The notes under the pieces: model-generated | Databases searched by the model: none | Told to the model about the DNA's origin: nothing | The model's input: only the letters and a program-made list of their open reading frames with translations | Translations under genes and position numbers: made by a program | DNA from: a virus | Lineage: Duplodnaviria; Heunggongvirae; Uroviricota; Caudoviricetes | Strand: one strand, 5' to 3' | Length of the DNA stretch: 33,493 nt | Virus record (IMG/VR): IMGVR_UViG_2579779076_000013 | Shown: positions 1,033-30,873 of the stretch, piece by piece | Layout: each line of letters starts with the position of its first letter | Numbering within the stretch: the stretch's first letter is position 1

Positions 1033-1063
1033 AAAAAATGCCCTCCAGTAGAGAGCATTTTTA

Positions 1064-1079
1064 CTGTATGTATAACCAG
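1064..1079. promoter_or_regulatory. LexA-box-like palindrome upstream of int
   Basis: TACTGTATGTATAACCAGTG fits CTG-N10-CAG with an AT-rich centre; one deviation from CTGT-N8-ACAG (CCAG). Lies about 32-47 bp upstream of the int start codon. Confidence 0.35.
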
Positions 1080-1220
1080 TGTCAATGTATGAAATCCTAC
1101 GACCATACATCTCACTGAAGCCATAATGAAGTTGGCTATTCTTTTTGCTATGTGAGCATGTAACTTTTGCGGTTAACCTGCGGCTCATTTTTATTTTAGA
1201 CGCAGATATAAAAGCAAAAG

Positions 1221-1412
1221 TTATCGTGAGTTTTTAGTACAGATTTTTTTGGATTTACTAATAGTTCCATCATTGCAAACGAATTTGCCATCTGAGGTAC
1301 AGTGAGAAACACCTCCCTTTTTCCCTGAGCAGGGATAATTTCTAGCATAGGTAGTTAGTGGGTTTAATAACAAAGAACATGATAAAACCACAAAAAATAC
1401 CTTACCAAGCAT
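1221..1412 (-). CDS. small secreted cysteine-rich protein (63 aa), moron in the cI-int operon
   Basis: Strong GGGAGG RBS 5 nt upstream of ATG. N-terminal signal-peptide-like segment [23 protein letters not shown], then a Cys/Lys/Gly-rich mature part. Visibly AT-rich relative to neighbours. Confidence 0.55.
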
Positions 1413-1427: not shown

Positions 1428-1997
1428 CTATTTAACATACTTGACTGTTAAACTTATAATTTTACCAATTATTTCAATGTCTTCTATCTTACATTCGAAG
1501 GCTCTGTTTCCACCCTCGACGAAGATTCTTCCACCGGGTAAACGAGTAATGTCACGGATCGTTATTTCGCCATCAATACTTATTACCCATTTACCATCAC
1601 GTATATCATCAAATTCCTTATCACAAATAAATTCAGAATTATTATCTGTGATTACAAAAAGATTCTTGAATGCCGACGGTAGAAATTCTCTATCGAAAAT
1701 ATAAAAACCGTCTTCACACAAAGCCCCATCAGATAATACATATTTAGCAACTTCCATAGTATTTGTATTACCTGAAGTTTGCTTTGAACCATGCCCGGTT
1801 GTGAGCCAATTAAGCGAAGTGCCTGTTTCAAGGGCGCACTGGATTACCCATTCTGCTGGGAATGAGTCACGCATGTAGCGTGTGGCGAGTGTACTTTTAG
1901 AGATTCCTAAATGATCGCACAACGCCTGTCGAGTCTTGAATCCATAAGCTTCTACCATGCGCTCTATAGCGCCTCGTCCGCCTTTCTCCAAATTCAT
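1428..1997 (-). CDS. cI: CI-type immunity repressor (N-terminal HTH), 186-like
   Basis: ORF track 1428..2003 begins at GTG; the ATG two codons in is more likely. HTH-like segment TRQALCDHLGISKSTLATRYMR. Divergent from the apl/cII operon, the classic switch arrangement. Confidence 0.75.
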   Translation of the reverse strand: MNLEKGGRGAIERMVEAYGFKTRQALCDHLGISKSTLATRYMRDSFPAEWVIQCALETGTSLNWLTTGHGSKQTSGNTNTMEVAKYVLSDGALCEDGFYIFDREFLPSAFKNLFVITDNNSEFICDKEFDDIRDGKWVISIDGEITIRDITRLPGGRIFVEGGNRAFECKIEDIEIIGKIISLTVKYVK

Positions 1998-4177: not shown

Positions 4178-5031
4178 GCACCATCCTGAAATGGGCGGGT
4201 AATAAAACCGCCATTATGCCAGAACTGAAAAAATACCTTCCTGCTGGCCCGCGACTGGTTGAACCTTTCGCGGGTTCTTGTGCTGTGATGATAGAGACGG
4301 ATTACCCCAGCTATCTTGTTGCGGATATTAATCCTGATTTAATCAACCTCTATAAAAAGGTTGCTGCTGATTGCGAGGCGTTTATATCTCGTGCCAGAGC
4401 TTTATTTGAGGAAGCAAACAGGGAGGTGGCTTATTACAACATAAGGCAGGAGTTTAATTACTCCACTGAAATTACTGATTTCATGAAAGCGGTATATTTC
4501 CTGTATCTCAATCGTCATGGTTACCGTGGGTTATGTCGCTATAACAAGAGCGGGCATTTCAACATTCCCTATGGGAATTATAAAAATCCGTATTTCCCTG
4601 AAAAAGAAATTCGCAAATTTGCAGAAAAAGCCCAGCGAGCAACGTTTATCTGCGCCAGCTTTGATGAAACGCTGGCGATGTTGAAGGCGGGGGATGTGGT
4701 GTATTGCGATCCGCCTTATTACGGTACGTTTTCCGGCTATCACACTGATGGCTTCACTGAGGATGACCAGTATCACCTGGCATCCGTTCTTGAACATCGA
4801 TCATCTGAAGGTCATCCGGTCATTGTTTCTAACAGTGACACATCCCTGATTCGTTCGCTGTATCGCAATTTCACTCACCACTACATCAAGGCAAAACGCA
4901 GCATCGGCGTGTCGGCTGGCGAGAGTAAATCTGCAACAGAAATCATTGCTGTTTCCGGGGCGCGCTGCTGGGTGGGATTTGATCCTTCGCGTGGCGTAGA
5001 TAGTTCTGCTGTGTACGAGGTGCGTGTATGA
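4174..5031 (+). CDS. dam: DNA adenine (N6) methyltransferase, Dam-like
   Basis: ATG at 4174 (GGAGG RBS) overlaps the upstream stop. Motif I FAGSCAV and motif IV DPPY ([12 protein letters not shown]). N-terminus [11 protein letters not shown] is typical of Dam. Confidence 0.85.
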
Positions 5032-7442
5032 GTCATGACGATATGAGCAACTCTAGCGGCTTTAACGAGGCCGCCGCATCATTTTCATGGAACGGCCCGA
5101 AAAAGGCCATTAACCCTTATCTGGACCCGGCGGAAGTTGCGCCGGAGTCTGCACTTTCAAACCTGATCACTCTGTATGCTGCCGATAACGAGCAGGAACA
5201 ACTGCGCCGCGAGGCACTGAGTGAGCAGGTCTGGGAGCGTTATTTCTTTAATGAATCCCGTGATCCTGTCCAGCGCGAAATGGAGCAGGATAAGCTCATT
5301 AGCCGGGCAAAGCTGGCGCATGAGCAGCAGCGTTTTAATCCAGACATGGTCATTCTGGCTGACGTCAACGCCCAGCCTTCCCATATCAGCAAGCCGCTGA
5401 TGCAACGTATTGAATACTTCAGCAGCCTGGGCAGGCCAAAGGCTTATTCCCGCTATTTGCGTGAGACGATTAAGCCATGTCTGGAACGGCTGGAGCATAT
5501 ACGCGACAGTCAGCTATCCACTTCTTTTCGCTTTATGGCGAGCCATGAAGGGCTGGACGGCCTGCTGATCCTGCCTGAAATGAGTCAGGATCAGGTGAAA
5601 CGCCTGTCCACCCTGGTAGCTGCGCATATGAGCATGTGCCTTGATGCAGCTTGTGGCGATTTGTATGCCACCGATGACGTTAAGCCAGAAGAAATCCGCA
5701 AGACATGGGAAAGGGTGGCAGCAGAAACCCTGCGACTGGATGTCATCCCACCTGCGTTTGAGCAACTCCGCCGGAAAAGAAACCGCCGTAAACCCGTGCC
5801 CTATGAACTCATTCCGGGTTCGCTAGCGCGTATGTTGTGCGCCGACTGGTGGTACCGGAAATTATGGAAGATGCGTTGCGAATGGCGGGAAGAGCAGTTG
5901 CGCGCTGTCTGCCTGGTCAGCAAAAAAGCATCTCCCTATGTCAGCTATGAAGCCGTGATGCATAAACGTGAGCAGCGCCGTAAGTCGCTGGAGTTTTTTC
6001 GTTCTCATGAACTGGTGAACGAAGACGGCGACACGCTGGATATGGAAGACGTGGTAAACGCCAGCAGCAGCAACCCTGCACATCGCCGCAATGAGATGAT
6101 GGCCTGTGTTAAAGGTCTGGAGCTTATCGCGGAAATGCGCGGTGACTGCGCCGTTTTCTACACCATCACCTGTCCGTCACGTTTCCATTCCACGCTCAAT
6201 AACGGCAGACCAAACCCAACCTGGACAAATGCGACGGTAAGACAAAGCAGCGATTATCTGGTCGGCATGTTTGCTGCATTTCGTAAGGCGATGCACAAAG
6301 CCGGGTTGCGCTGGTATGGCGTGCGGGTGGCTGAGCCGCATCATGACGGTACGGTTCACTGGCACCTGTTGTGTTTCATGCGCAAAAAAGACCGCCGTGC
6401 CATTACTGCATTGTTGTGTAAGTTTGCCATCCGTGAAGACCGCGAGGAACTGGGTAATAACACTGGTCCACGCTTTAAATCTGAGCTGATAAACCCGCGC
6501 AAAGGAACACCGACAAGCTACATCGCGAAATACATTAGTAAGAACATTGACGGGCGTGGTCTGGCTGGCGAGATCAGCAAGGAAACGGGTAAATCCCTGC
6601 GTGATAACGCTGAATACGTTAATGCCTGGGCGTCTCTGCATCGTGTTCAGCAATTCCGCTTCTTTGGTATTCCGGGGCGTCAGGCTTACCGTGAACTGCG
6701 ATTGCTGGCTGGTCAGGCGGCAAGGCAACAGGGTGACAAAAAAGCAGGTGCGCCGGTACTGGATAACCCGCGCCTTGATGCCATCCTGGCTGCTGCTGAT
6801 GCTGGTTGTTTTGCCACTTACATCATGAAGCAGGGTGGCGTACTGGTTCCCCGCAAATATCACCTCATCAGAACTGCTTATGAAATTAACGAAGAGCCGA
6901 CCGCCTATGGCGATCACGGCATTCGTATTTATGGCATCTGGTCACCCATTGCAGAGGGCAAGATCTGCACTCATGCAGTGAAGTGGAAAATGGTTCGTAA
7001 AGCCGTTGACGTTCAGGAGGCGGTAGCCGACCAGGGCGCTTGCGCCCCTTGGACTCGTGGCAATAACTGTCCCCTTGCTGAAAATTTGAACCAACAGGAG
7101 AAAGATAAATCAGCTGATGGGGACCCCAGAACGGACATTACCAGCATGGATGACAAGGAGTTGCACGATTACCTGCACAGTATGAGCAAAAAAGAGCGCC
7201 GGGAACTGGCAGCAAGGTTACGCCTGGTGAAACCGAAACGGCGTAAAGACTACAAACAGCGAATTACAGACCATCAGCGACTGCAGCTCGTGTATGAGCT
7301 GAAGTCCAGAGGATTTGATGGCAGCGAGAAAGAGGTCGATTTACTCCTTCGCGGAGGCAGTATTCCGTCAGGAGCAGGCCTGCGTATCTTCTATCGGAAC
7401 CAGCGTTTGCAGGAAGATGATCAGTGGCGGAACCTGTATTAA
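5028..7442 (+). CDS. A: replication initiation endonuclease gpA (HUH rolling-circle initiator)
   Basis: 804-aa ORF coupled to dam (ATGA overlap). HUH-type motif VHWHLLCF. Size and position match P2/186 gene A. Confidence 0.9.
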
Positions 7443-7536
7443 TTACGCGGGTTAACAATTCGTGCTCTTAATAATACCAGGCATATCAGGCTGATGAACG
7501 TAAAAAAACGTTTTACATCAGTAAGATTATTATATA

Positions 7537-7552
7537 CTGTAAATATAAACAG
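7537..7552. promoter_or_regulatory. LexA box (SOS operator) overlapping the promoter of the downstream two-gene operon
   Basis: TACTGTAAATATAAACAGTG is a perfect CTGT-N8-ACAG with an AT-rich centre. An upstream TTTACA -35-like element is present. Confidence 0.7.
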
Positions 7553-7595
7553 TGGTTATACATACAGTATTGCGTGTGGTGTCATAGGAGGAAAG

Positions 7596-7784
7596 ATGCA
7601 GGACTATTTTTTGGAGTCTTTGAAGCTCCAGCGCATTGATTTTTTTCTTAAGCTTGTAGCGGCTAGTGAGTGTAGTGATGAAGAGAAGGGGCTGGCTCTG
7701 CAGTGGGTTTCTGAATTGACTGATGAACTCATGGCAAAAATCAGAACCCACGAATACAACCGCTCAATGGATGTCATCAGCTGA
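7596..7784 (+). CDS. small SOS-controlled protein, candidate Tum-like antirepressor (62 aa)
   Basis: AGGAGG RBS 4-9 nt upstream of ATG 7596 and immediately downstream of the LexA box. The longer track ORF (7494) would contain the operator and RBS, so the shorter start is preferred. Confidence 0.45.
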   Translation: MQDYFLESLKLQRIDFFLKLVAASECSDEEKGLALQWVSELTDELMAKIRTHEYNRSMDVIS

Positions 7785-7794
7785 GGTGACTTTT

Positions 7795-8028
7795 ATGCGC
7801 ATTGAAATAATGATCGATAAAGAGCAGAAGATTAGCCAGTCTACCCTAGACGCCCTTGAATCCGAGCTTTACCGCAATCTGCGCCCCCTGTATCCCAAAA
7901 CGGTAATTCGCATTCGCAAAGGTAGCTCTAACGGTGTGGAACTAACCGGACTGCAACTGGACGAAGAAAGAAAACAAGTGATGAAAATTATGCAGAAGGT
8001 GTGGGAAGACGACAGCTGGCTGCATTAA
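7795..8028 (+). CDS. DinI-family protein
   Basis: MRIEIMIDK...LDALESEL...QKVWEDDSWLH parallels E. coli DinI (MRIEVTIAK...IDALAGEL...QETWESADDWF). 77 aa; GAGGTGA RBS. Confidence 0.7.
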   Translation: MRIEIMIDKEQKISQSTLDALESELYRNLRPLYPKTVIRIRKGSSNGVELTGLQLDEERKQVMKIMQKVWEDDSWLH

Positions 8029-8163
8029 GAAACGTTGCTGGCGTCTGAACTTGCTTCTGGCGTCAGCAAGGTTGAACAACGAGCCCTTGCGAGGCGTTAG
8101 CTCTGTAGTGCATGTCTATGCCGCATGAGATCGCATGATCGTTTGAGGATCGTTTTTGCTAAG

Positions 8164-8187
8164 GCCCGCCAGAACTGGCGGGCTTTT
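8164..8187 (+). terminator. rho-independent terminator after the SOS operon
   Basis: GCCCGCCAG-aa-CTGGCGGGC stem followed by TTTT. Confidence 0.6.
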
Positions 8188-8232
8188 GCGTAGATCATGC
8201 AGGTGCATGAAAACCACTACATAAAGCGGGCA

Positions 8233-8251
8233 GGCGTGGCGGGGATACGAT
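8233..8251. other. candidate cos (cohesive end) sequence
   Basis: GGCGTGGCGGGGATACGAT resembles the 19-nt cohesive ends of P2/186 as I remember them (GGCG[A/T]GGCGGGGAAAGCA[C/T]). Lies between gene A and the portal gene as expected. Confidence 0.4.
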
Positions 8252-8311
8252 TGCGCACTGTCGTGGTTAGAGATAAGCTATCAATAAATATGCTACTGTA
8301 TAGAGGAAAAT

Positions 8312-10081
8312 ATGGCTGAACTTGCGTCACAACCAACATCTATTCAATCTATTTATAACTGGTATATTGATAACAGACTCTTTGTTAATAGGAGATATCA
8401 ACGTAAATTAGTTTGGACATTAATTGAAAAGCAAAAGCTTGTAGATTCGATTTTGAAAAAATATCCAGTACCAGCAATACTTATTGCTGAAAGAGAAGGT
8501 TCCCCTGGTACGTATGAAATAATTGATGGTTTACAGCGTCTCCACGCCATTATGTCGTTTATAGAAACTTCTTATACGACCATTGATGGTAAAATATTCA
8601 ATCTTCAATTTTTCCCAACAGCTCAAACAAGAGCAGATGAAGGTTTTTTTGAGCCTGACATACAATCCGAAGTAATTTCGCAACGAGATGTGGGAACGTT
8701 TCTTGATTATCCATTAGCTTTGTCTGTGATGCGAAATGCTACTGAAAATGAGATCAATGATGTTTTTGATAGAATTAACTCGTATGGTCACAGACTTAGC
8801 GATCAAGAAAGAAGACAGTCAGGGGTGGAAAACAGTTTTTCAACAATGGTTAGAAATATTTCCTGTTCGATTCGAGGTGATGTTTCAAGTGATATATTAC
8901 CCCTTCGTGATATGCCATCCATTAGTATCGACTTGCCTTTAACCAGGCACGGGTATTCAGTTAAGGCTGATGATGTATTCTGGGTTAAACATGGCGTTTT
9001 GCGTTCAACTGATCTAAGAGACAGTATGGATGAGCAATGTATAGCTGATATTGCTGCTTGTGTAATATTAGGTGAGCCTATTGAAAGATCAAAGGTTGCG
9101 CTTGATAGGATTTATGATCAATCTCGTCCAGAATATATTCAGCTTAACTCTGCGCTTGAGGTTTATGGAGATACTAAGTTTATTGAAGAGTTTAAGTATT
9201 GTCTCGATGAAATTATTAAAGTCTGTGAAAATGGTACTTTCATAAAATTAAGGGAGTTGATTTTCCCCGATGCAAATAATAATGCATATCCATCTGTTTT
9301 TTCGATTTTATTCTTATCTTTCTATGAGTTGATTGTCGGCGAAAATAAAAAAGTGGCTAATTATTCTGAACTAAGGAACCGAATGAATAATATTGTCGAT
9401 AGAATTAATATAGGACGAAGAGCAGGAAGCGTTGATGAACGAAGAGCAAATATCGATGCTGTAAAAGGTTTGATTGGTGTATCTTTTGTGGTTTCTGATG
9501 AACCTCTACCTATTTATGAAAACCATACCGGCATGGACATAGAGAATTATATTAGAAGGTCTGAAGTGGAATTGGCTAACTATGAGTTAAAGCAGGGGAT
9601 GTTGAACTTAAATAATTCGAGAACATTGAATCAAGATGTTGTGCACAGAATTATTAATACTATATGTGCAATAGCTAATAATGGGAAAGGGACGCTCGGA
9701 AAAATTATCATTGGTGTTGCTGATGATGACCATGATGCAGAGAGAGTAAGACAGTTAGATCGTATTGAACCAAAACGAGTTGGTTTAAAAAACGTTGTAG
9801 GTGTTTCAAGAGAAGCTAGAGCGCTCGGTATTACTAATGAAGAGTATTTAACTCGGTGGGTCAATGCTATTCAAAATTCAGAGTTATCAGAGCCACTGAA
9901 AAGTAATGTTTTGTCAAAGATAGACTATAATGATTTTTATGGATTAGGGGTCATCGTTATTACGGTACCTCCCCAACAATCGATTTCCGCGGTAGGTCAA
10001 GATATTTATTGGCGAGAAGCTGATAAAACAACCTTAGCTCATGGCTTACAAATAGCGACAATAGCTACTAGATTTAGTTAA
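8312..10081 (+). CDS. DUF262/ParB-like N-terminal domain protein with C-terminal Schlafen/AlbA_2-like domain; candidate anti-phage defence cargo
   Basis: 589-aa ORF with AGAGGA RBS. N-terminal DGQQR-type motif (YEIIDGLQRLHAI) after a basic RRYQRK segment. C-terminal motif SEVELANYELK...ICAIANNGKGTLGKIIIGVADDD resembles the AlbA_2/Schlafen signature. No HxxP/HNH (DUF1524) motif seen. Visibly AT-rich. Confidence 0.8.
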   Translation: MAELASQPTSIQSIYNWYIDNRLFVNRRYQRKLVWTLIEKQKLVDSILKKYPVPAILIAEREGSPGTYEIIDGLQRLHAIMSFIETSYTTIDGKIFNLQFFPTAQTRADEGFFEPDIQSEVISQRDVGTFLDYPLALSVMRNATENEINDVFDRINSYGHRLSDQERRQSGVENSFSTMVRNISCSIRGDVSSDILPLRDMPSISIDLPLTRHGYSVKADDVFWVKHGVLRSTDLRDSMDEQCIADIAACVILGEPIERSKVALDRIYDQSRPEYIQLNSALEVYGDTKFIEEFKYCLDEIIKVCENGTFIKLRELIFPDANNNAYPSVFSILFLSFYELIVGENKKVANYSELRNRMNNIVDRINIGRRAGSVDERRANIDAVKGLIGVSFVVSDEPLPIYENHTGMDIENYIRRSEVELANYELKQGMLNLNNSRTLNQDVVHRIINTICAIANNGKGTLGKIIIGVADDDHDAERVRQLDRIEPKRVGLKNVVGVSREARALGITNEEYLTRWVNAIQNSELSEPLKSNVLSKIDYNDFYGLGVIVITVPPQQSISAVGQDIYWREADKTTLAHGLQIATIATRFS

Positions 10082-30638: not shown

Positions 30639-30716
30639 CGCTGCCGCCATTTTGTCGCCATCGTTAAAAAACAGTGCTTCTAACGTCATGATTTTAAACG
30701 GCATAAATTTCAGGCA

Positions 30717-30761
30717 ACAAAAAACCCATCAACCTTGAACCGAAATGGCGGGGTTGATGGG
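30717..30761 (-). terminator. rho-independent terminator downstream of ybjL (minus strand); marks host DNA
   Basis: On the minus strand, stem CCCATCAACC/GGTTGATGGG followed by a T-run (plus-strand A-run at 30717-30724). Confidence 0.45.
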
Positions 30762-30873
30762 CTCCACAAAATGGGGACATCAAAGAAAAGCAGTGGCATT
30801 AATTAAGACTGATGCCCTGCGGAAAAGTTCTGCGGTTGTGCAAAAAAATTTCATTTTCAGGGCAACTTCAGTT

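Follow-up and report, generated by a model that had tools for sequence, protein, structure and literature searches.

The SOS operon of coliphage 186 (p95-tum-orf97) lies downstream of gene A and is transcribed from a LexA-repressed promoter with its -10 hexamer inside a single SOS box. The annotation of 186 records the p95 promoter, the LexA site, and a Tum protein that "inhibits CI DNA binding," as well as a truncated, DinI-like form of Tum that "modulates SOS induction." According to this annotation and to papers that cite Shearwin 1998, Tum binds 186 CI reversibly and blocks its binding to operators. The antirepressor and DinI-like parts are fused in one protein of 146 amino acids with nested starts, with orf97, the third gene, located beyond a partial terminator. 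In Fels-2 and PSP3, a stop codon divides tum in two, and the antirepressor is encoded by the upstream part (Lemire et al. 2011). The PSP3 annotation describes tumA as "similar to 5' end 186 tum; UV induction of prophage" and tumB as "similar to dinI and 3' end of 186 tum," and a literature search on tumA and tumB as names retrieved no relevant paper. LexA-controlled antirepressors (GfoA, GftA, and FsoA) that act without cleavage of the repressor have also been described for Gifsy and Fels-1 prophages (Lemire et al. 2011).

The described system closest to the present locus is that of DuoHS, a prophage of E. coli HS. In-frame deletion of DuoHS tum (ECHS_RS04495, a 189-bp ORF ahead of a DinI-like gene) abolished mitomycin C induction, as did lexA(Ind-), and neither mutant showed lysis or viral foci after mitomycin C (PMC12055606). 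The requirement for both tumA and a cleavable LexA in mitomycin C induction is thus established in a prophage near-identical to the one described here.

Prophage type and layout of the SOS operon

The window (the whole stretch of 33,493 nucleotides that was analyzed) carries int, a gene for a 186-type CI immunity repressor of 189 amino acids (1428 to 1997, minus strand), an Apl/Cox-like gene, genes for CII, a Fil-like protein, and a Dam methylase, and gene A (5028 to 7442), a replication gene of the P2 gpA type (Pfam Phage_GPA, E = 3.7e-127). Gene A is followed by the operator and tum genes, one cargo gene, and P2-like late genes, with the set of structural ORFs, from Q/P through D and ogr, being P2-like and complete. 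The cargo gene lies 3' of the operon terminator and encodes a GmrSD_N/Schlafen-like protein of 589 amino acids, and the RybB sRNA gene and ybjL are located at the window's right end. The CI protein aligned with 186 CI from end to end (32% identity) and was identical to DuoHS CI at all 189 positions. CI, Apl/Cox, CII, Fil, A, and tum were all of the 186/Fels-2 type, and the gene layout is likewise that of 186/Fels-2-type members of the Peduoviridae, the family to which 186, Fels-2, PSP3, and the closest records are all assigned. Judged by these gene comparisons, the prophage belongs to the 186/Fels-2 group and is unexceptional there. A mosaic of P2 late genes and 186 immunity, as proposed in an earlier, sequence-only reading of this DNA, was rejected as unneeded, given the 186/Fels-2-like character of the early region as a whole. 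P2 is not known to carry tum or to be UV-inducible. P2-type immunity and the lack of an SOS operon, the marks of P2 proper, were not found, the window having instead a 186-type CI, Apl, CII, and Fil together with a tum operon.

The anatomy, homologies, and conservation of the operon were established in the present analysis. On the plus strand, a Shine-Dalgarno sequence read directly as AGGAGG (7586 to 7591) precedes a tumA-type antirepressor gene with an ATG start codon (7596 to 7784, 62 amino acids), which is followed by the DinI-family gene tumB (7795 to 8028, 77 amino acids). The tumB Shine-Dalgarno sequence, GAGGTG, overlaps the tumA stop codon, and a small hairpin (7773 to 7790) followed by TTTTATG extends across both elements, an arrangement that possibly serves translational coupling or attenuation. 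Folding of the 3' untranslated region predicted a conserved stem-loop without a U-tract (8031 to 8073), and the operon ends at a predicted intrinsic terminator, GCCCGCCA-GAAC-TGGCGGGC-TTTT (8163 to 8190), in which a GC-rich hairpin (8163 to 8183) is followed by UUUU (-24.8 kcal/mol with flanks, z = -4.96). The LexA box, the AGGAGG sequence, the two ORFs, and the terminator all lay where the sequence-only reading had placed them. The region 3' of tumB (8029 to approximately 8260) was present in 1219 E. coli genomes. An Rfam search gave no match in the SOS region, the sole match within the window being RybB at the right-hand end of the prophage.

DuoHS has the same gene order after gene A as the window, an identical double SOS box, a TumA protein identical at 61 of 62 positions (the sole difference being T52S), and a TumB protein identical at all 77. 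It also occupies the same integration region (rcdA ... rybB/ybjL), sitting between rcdA and ybjL, with ybjL bounding both prophages on the right. The two differ after tumB, where DuoHS has two other genes and the window has the terminator and then the cargo gene. The published DuoHS deletion primers (PMC12055606 supplement) match the window at the tumA start and stop. Fels-2 (STM2728/STM2726.1) and PSP3 resemble the window in having a LexA box, a small ORF, and a separate gene for a 77-residue DinI homologue after gene A. The CI protein of Fels-2 is 47% identical to that of the window, whereas PSP3 is more distant, with a TumA only approximately 17% identical and assigned to a different PHROG (1993 versus 698), a single SOS box, and a CI of 286 amino acids. 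The 186 operon shares with the window the position and type of its promoter, an antirepressor directed against a 186-type CI, a DinI-like module, and a terminator after tum, but its fused Tum corresponds to two genes here and its single SOS box to two. The Gifsy and Fels-1 operons likewise combine an SOS box, a small antirepressor gene, and a dinI homologue, but in these lambdoid phages dinI comes first and the repressors are unrelated.

We conclude that the locus is very probably an SOS induction operon with a split tum, belonging to a temperate phage of the 186/Fels-2 type. The proposal of a 186-style, LexA-repressed induction module of two genes is in agreement with the genetics of DuoHS (PMC12055606), with tumA/tumB of PSP3, and with the account of Lemire et al. 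2011. In a lysogen, LexA bound at two overlapping SOS boxes over the -10 element and start of a p95-like promoter would keep the operon silent. On DNA damage, activated RecA would promote self-cleavage of LexA, and the operon would be transcribed as far as the terminator at 8163 to 8190. TumA would then bind the 186-type CI and prevent its binding to operators, which would free the early lytic promoter and lead to excision and lytic growth. Rather than acting on CI, TumB most likely attaches to RecA filaments and adjusts how strong the SOS signal is or how long it lasts.

The split tum SOS operon of 186-like phages is already known, and a TumA differing by one residue has already been characterized. 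Given that the DuoHS module is essentially identical and its CI identical, the idea of a small antirepressor has in effect already been tested genetically. Because the nature of the module was already established, the finding mainly confirms annotation. The module was found by Megablast in 1144 of 5426 complete E. coli genomes (about 21%), with up to four copies per genome, and it is also present in phages of Klebsiella, Salmonella, and Yersinia. It would set when a very common prophage family of E. coli, Salmonella, and Klebsiella exits the chromosome after DNA damage, including that caused by antibiotics. The remaining interest lies in a double, colicin-like operator, an invariant TumA found with many CI proteins, and a LexA-like box at int, three observations that would refine the view of induction thresholds and of cross-talk between prophages.

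TumA, TumB, and the trigger of induction

The 62-residue protein is a full-length member of phrog_698 (E = 3.6e-38) and also matched phrog_8554 (2.4e-8) and phrog_1993 (2.2e-3). Residues 1 to 70 of 186 Tum matched the same three profiles (phrog_1993, 2e-23; phrog_8554, 3e-12; phrog_698, 6.7e-6), and PSP3 TumA is a member of phrog_1993, with phrog_8554 and phrog_1993 being common to all three proteins. A C-x7-AL motif is also in register in the three proteins. Comparison with 186 Tum, suggested by the sequence-only reading as a check, thus gave homology to the NH2-terminal half of Tum at the level of PHROG profiles, but pairwise BLASTP produced no alignment; identity between TumA and this half is approximately 20%, and the relationship is detectable only with profiles. 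Searches of the protein against Pfam, PDB sequences, and PADLOC gave no match. Given the shared profiles and the common motif, the 62-residue ORF counts, on profile homology, as a homologue of the antirepressor part of Tum that has diverged and is encoded apart from the DinI half. The protein is 98% identical (61 of 62 residues) to Fels-2 STM2728, and its near-identity to the DuoHS tum product, together with the identical CI and the PHROG matches, bears out its earlier nomination as the candidate antirepressor. By analogy with 186 Tum, we infer that TumA binds the CI protein of this prophage. The "hypothetical protein" annotated ahead of the DinI-like gene should be named TumA or Tum.

The 77-residue protein, which the earlier reading had assigned to the DinI family, matched PF06183 over its full length (E = 6.6e-23; 81.3 bits against a gathering cut-off of 24.2). 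It also matched E. coli DinI chains 1GHH/7YWA (E = 2.7e-6, residues 1 to 75) and was 41% identical to residues 71 to 145 of 186 Tum. Identity was 78% to PSP3 TumB and 100% to the corresponding proteins of Fels-2, DuoHS, and 813R9. On the basis of its family membership, TumB would be expected to bind RecA filaments and modulate the SOS signal.

It might be argued that TumB, and not the 62-residue protein, inactivates CI and triggers induction, with the small ORF being a leader or coupling peptide for tumB. The two halves do form a single polypeptide in 186. Moreover, because the tumA stop codon, the tumB Shine-Dalgarno sequence, and the hairpin overlap, an in-frame tumA deletion such as that in DuoHS might alter translation of tumB, and, given this possible translational coupling, the DuoHS deletion does not fully separate TumA from TumB. 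The deletion nevertheless left the tumB ribosome binding site intact, as judged from primer NHR28, and in Gifsy prophages induction was not significantly affected when dinI was removed by non-polar deletion (Lemire et al. 2011). PSP3 TumA is annotated with the UV-induction function, antirepressor activity in the split operons has been ascribed to the upstream gene (Lemire et al. 2011), and the truncated DinI-only products of 186 are annotated as modulators, not as antirepressors. In ESSI2_ev015 a LexA box and a TumA-like gene occur without any DinI gene, and such ESSI2-type phages point to TumA as the essential part. We therefore consider a triggering role for TumB very unlikely.

Slightly less probable again is the view that the operon is an SOS-induced accessory "moron" that serves the host through DinI-like control of RecA and has no role in the choice between lysis and lysogeny, for instance in a defective prophage. 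SOS-controlled DinI homologues are indeed common prophage cargo (Lemire et al. 2011), but a near-identical module paired with an identical CI is needed for induction of DuoHS (PMC12055606), and the complete set of P2-like structural ORFs in the window does not suggest a defective prophage. TumA as the antirepressor of an induction operon thus remains the preferred reading.

The overlapping LexA boxes

The LexA box consensus is TACTGTATATATATACAGTA. Box 1, TACTGTAAATATAAACAGTG (7535 to 7554, plus strand; core, 7537 to 7552), contains the sole CTGT-N8-ACAG match within the window and starts 93 nucleotides past the gene A stop codon (7442), a position that agrees with those in the related loci examined. 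By our own count it matches the consensus at 17 of 20 positions. The box is real and conserved, but its earlier description as "perfect" was an overstatement. The 16-nucleotide core alone was not significant, being expected 0.53 times per window and occurring at least once in 44 of 100 shuffled sequences. The extended pattern TACTGT-W8-ACAGT was significant, with 0.02 matches expected when up to two mismatches were allowed. We compared the site among eight related loci (186, PSP3, Fels-2, SopEPhi, E. coli HS, 813R9, a Yersinia phage, and ESSI2_ev015), and CTGT-N8-ACAG preceded tum or tumA in all eight, with diverged flanks. A CTGT-N8-ACAG sequence within PSP3 orf28 was also considered as a LexA box but was taken as a chance match, given that its spacer is not AT-rich and that it lies within coding sequence.

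The single LexA box of the sequence-only reading was thus present, but a second, weaker box that overlaps it (7550 to 7569, plus strand) had been missed. The core of box 2, GTGGTTATACATACAG (7552 to 7567), shares one base with that of box 1, and one of its half-sites is degenerate. The composite pattern CTGT-N8-ACAG-TGG-N8-ACAG was kept in 71 of the 75 related IMG/VR loci that had enough upstream DNA. Across these 75 loci box 1 was nearly invariant and the variation in box 2 fell mostly in its 8-nucleotide spacer, a pattern consistent with that expected of a selected LexA site. Both boxes were present in every phrog_698-type locus aligned (the window, DuoHS, Fels-2, SopEPhi, and Yersinia MLG42), whereas 186, PSP3, and ESSI2 have a single box and lack box 2. 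The least probable of the alternatives is that the box arose by chance in AT-rich DNA, with the operon being constitutive or controlled by CI. Although the core alone is expected approximately 0.5 times per window, the extended motif is expected 0.02 times. Moreover, the box is kept at the same place, between diverged flanks, in 186, PSP3, Fels-2, SopEPhi, DuoHS, ESSI2, and Yersinia phage loci, and it is also kept in the 75 IMG/VR loci. In addition, lexA(Ind-) blocks DuoHS induction (PMC12055606).

A scan for the sigma-70 consensus called no promoter at tum. This result was discounted, since p95 of 186, an annotated promoter, was likewise missed. Alignment with 186 p95 instead placed a putative -35 hexamer, TTTACA, at 7512 to 7517 (plus strand), corresponding to the annotated p95 -35 hexamer (TTCACA), and, after a spacing of 17 nucleotides, a presumed -10 hexamer, TACTGT, at 7535 to 7540, the first six bases of box 1. 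The earlier statement that the operator overlaps a promoter is consistent with this placement of the -10 hexamer.

A 46-nucleotide operator query matched over 900 plasmids, with E values of approximately 1e-4; small, mobilizable plasmids were numerous among them. The two plasmid matches that we opened lay approximately 45 nucleotides upstream of a gene for a colicin-like pore former and of a klebicin-like tRNase gene, respectively. Gap-free alignment with colicin and klebicin promoters over approximately 37 nucleotides yielded the pattern CTGT-N8-(A/C)CAG-TGG-N8-ACAG-TA. By this pattern, the tum operator is a double SOS operator of the colicin type. The overlapping SOS boxes of colicin and klebicin genes have the same weak GTGG half-site in the second box, but they control bacteriocin genes rather than a phage antirepressor gene, and their promoter hexamers are placed differently. 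At the colicin double operator, two bound LexA dimers give tight repression and delayed induction (PMC2994835), and by analogy we infer that two LexA dimers would occupy both boxes at tum.

TumA, CI diversity, and a LexA-like site at int

TumA was identical (100%) across the 80 best matches in IMG/VR. CI was found in 70 of these 80, with 41 distinct sequences that formed at least 17 clusters at 80% identity. The clusters are 41 to 56% identical to the CI of the window, the presumed target of TumA, whose own type was found in only 29 loci. Similarly, 813R9 and Fels-2 have TumA proteins 98 to 100% identical to that of the window together with CI proteins of 54% and 47% identity, respectively. 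Columns invariant across all CI clusters numbered 22 of 75 in the NH2-terminal helix-turn-helix domain versus 4 of 105 in the COOH-terminal domain, and a conserved segment, RD-x-FP-xx-W, differs in 186 CI. The pairing of an invariant TumA with divergent CI proteins that are conserved in the NH2-terminal domain suggests that TumA recognizes a surface conserved in the DNA-binding domain of CI and that related prophages in the same cell could be open to its action in trans. Such conservation may, however, simply reflect the constraint of DNA binding. We raise only tentatively, as somewhat doubtful, the further idea that this TumA variant might be near-universal in its antirepressor action and not tied to any one immunity type. 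If TumA does dock on this surface, the SOS operon of one prophage could induce in trans co-resident 186-like prophages with other CI types.

A stricter motif search detected a second LexA-like site, TACTGTATGTATAACCAGT, at 1062 to 1080. The minus strand at this site reads TTGACA-CTGGTTATACATACAG-TAAAAAT, and here the sigma-70 scan called a promoter (TTGACA-17-AAAAAT, with 10 of 12 matches). This stretch ends approximately 25 nucleotides ahead of the likely int start (MAVRKL, at about 1032), and the arrangement looks like a candidate LexA-repressed int promoter. A literature search found no description of LexA-regulated int in P2-like phages. The sequence CTG[GT]-N8-ACAG was present upstream of int in 38 of 39 IMG/VR loci with the int type of the window, and two variants of the site are perfect CTGT-N8-ACAG boxes. 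Together with docking of TumA on a conserved CI surface, such a promoter would complete a three-part SOS circuit composed of a double operator on tum, which would impose a high damage threshold, a shared antirepressor, and a LexA-repressed int promoter, which would supply integrase for excision. Homology to other phages starts approximately at the -35 hexamer of the candidate int promoter and runs into int, with the DNA upstream being different. The int gene directly follows cI in Fels-2 and SopEPhi, whereas another gene lies between cI and int in the window, DuoHS, and 813R9.

TumA and its repressor partners

One TumA sequence, the 62-aa antirepressor-type product, was found 100% identical across the 80 best IMG/VR matches (L015-L094), where it stands alongside at least 17 clusters of CI, the 186-type immunity repressor. 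The CI proteins of the clusters that are paired with this identical TumA share only 41-56% identity with the CI of the window (1428-1997), and conservation across clusters in the IMG/VR loci resides mainly in the N-terminal domain. In Escherichia phage ESSI2_ev015 (L006, 656-913), one LexA box precedes a TumA-like gene of 70 aa with a GTG start; the phage lacks a DinI gene there, with a gene on the opposite strand instead coming next after the TumA-like gene.

The region upstream of int

A promoter-like site, TTGACA-17-AAAAAT (1057-1085, minus strand), ends approximately 25 nt before the likely start of int, and its spacer is occupied by a LexA-like box, CTGGTTATACATACAG (1062-1080). This box is kept in DuoHS (a near-identical prophage of E. 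coli HS), in the related phage 813R9, and in Klebsiella 4LV2017 and KP12, as well as in 38 of 39 IMG/VR loci with the same int type; two variants of the box among such loci have the perfect form CTGT-N8-ACAG. The 1057-1085 site is possibly an int promoter repressed by LexA, and we met no description of such a promoter in the literature searched.

Directly 5' of the int ATG (position ~1032) lies a hairpin, GCTCTC...GAGGGC, followed by T6 (1036-1056, minus strand), the 3' arm of which contains a GGAGG Shine-Dalgarno motif. The hairpin in the other int lineage reads GCCCTC/GAGGGC, with a C-G pair replacing the T-G wobble. The hairpin suggests that int may be subject to attenuation or translational control.

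Variable slots and the prophage's right end

The DinI-family gene tumB is followed by a structured 3' region (8029-8260, plus strand) comprising a stem-loop (8031-8073) and a terminator. Matches to this region occur in 1219 E. coli genomes, and in a subset of these they stop near 8260, ahead of the next gene. That gene (8312-10081, plus strand) encodes a protein of 589 aa that combines GmrSD_N (DUF262) and Schlafen/AlbA_2 domains and whose N-terminus resembles PADLOC NsnA and PD-T4-2_A. At the corresponding position, 186 has orf97, and DuoHS, 813R9 and Fels-2 have different genes. The 589-aa protein is probably anti-phage cargo, occupying the variable position that separates tum from the portal gene.

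Between cI and int, the window holds a 63-aa ORF (1221-1412, minus strand) with several cysteines and a signal-peptide-like N-terminus, whose E. coli HS counterpart, ECHS_RS23290, is annotated as hypothetical. The same slot is instead filled by a 1.7-kb 'chromosome segregation ATPase' gene in 813R9 and KP12 and by a DUF2511 gene in PSP3.

Just past the ogr end of the prophage, the RybB sRNA (30716-30794, minus strand; Rfam RF00110, 105 bits) adjoins ybjL, which borders the same side of DuoHS.
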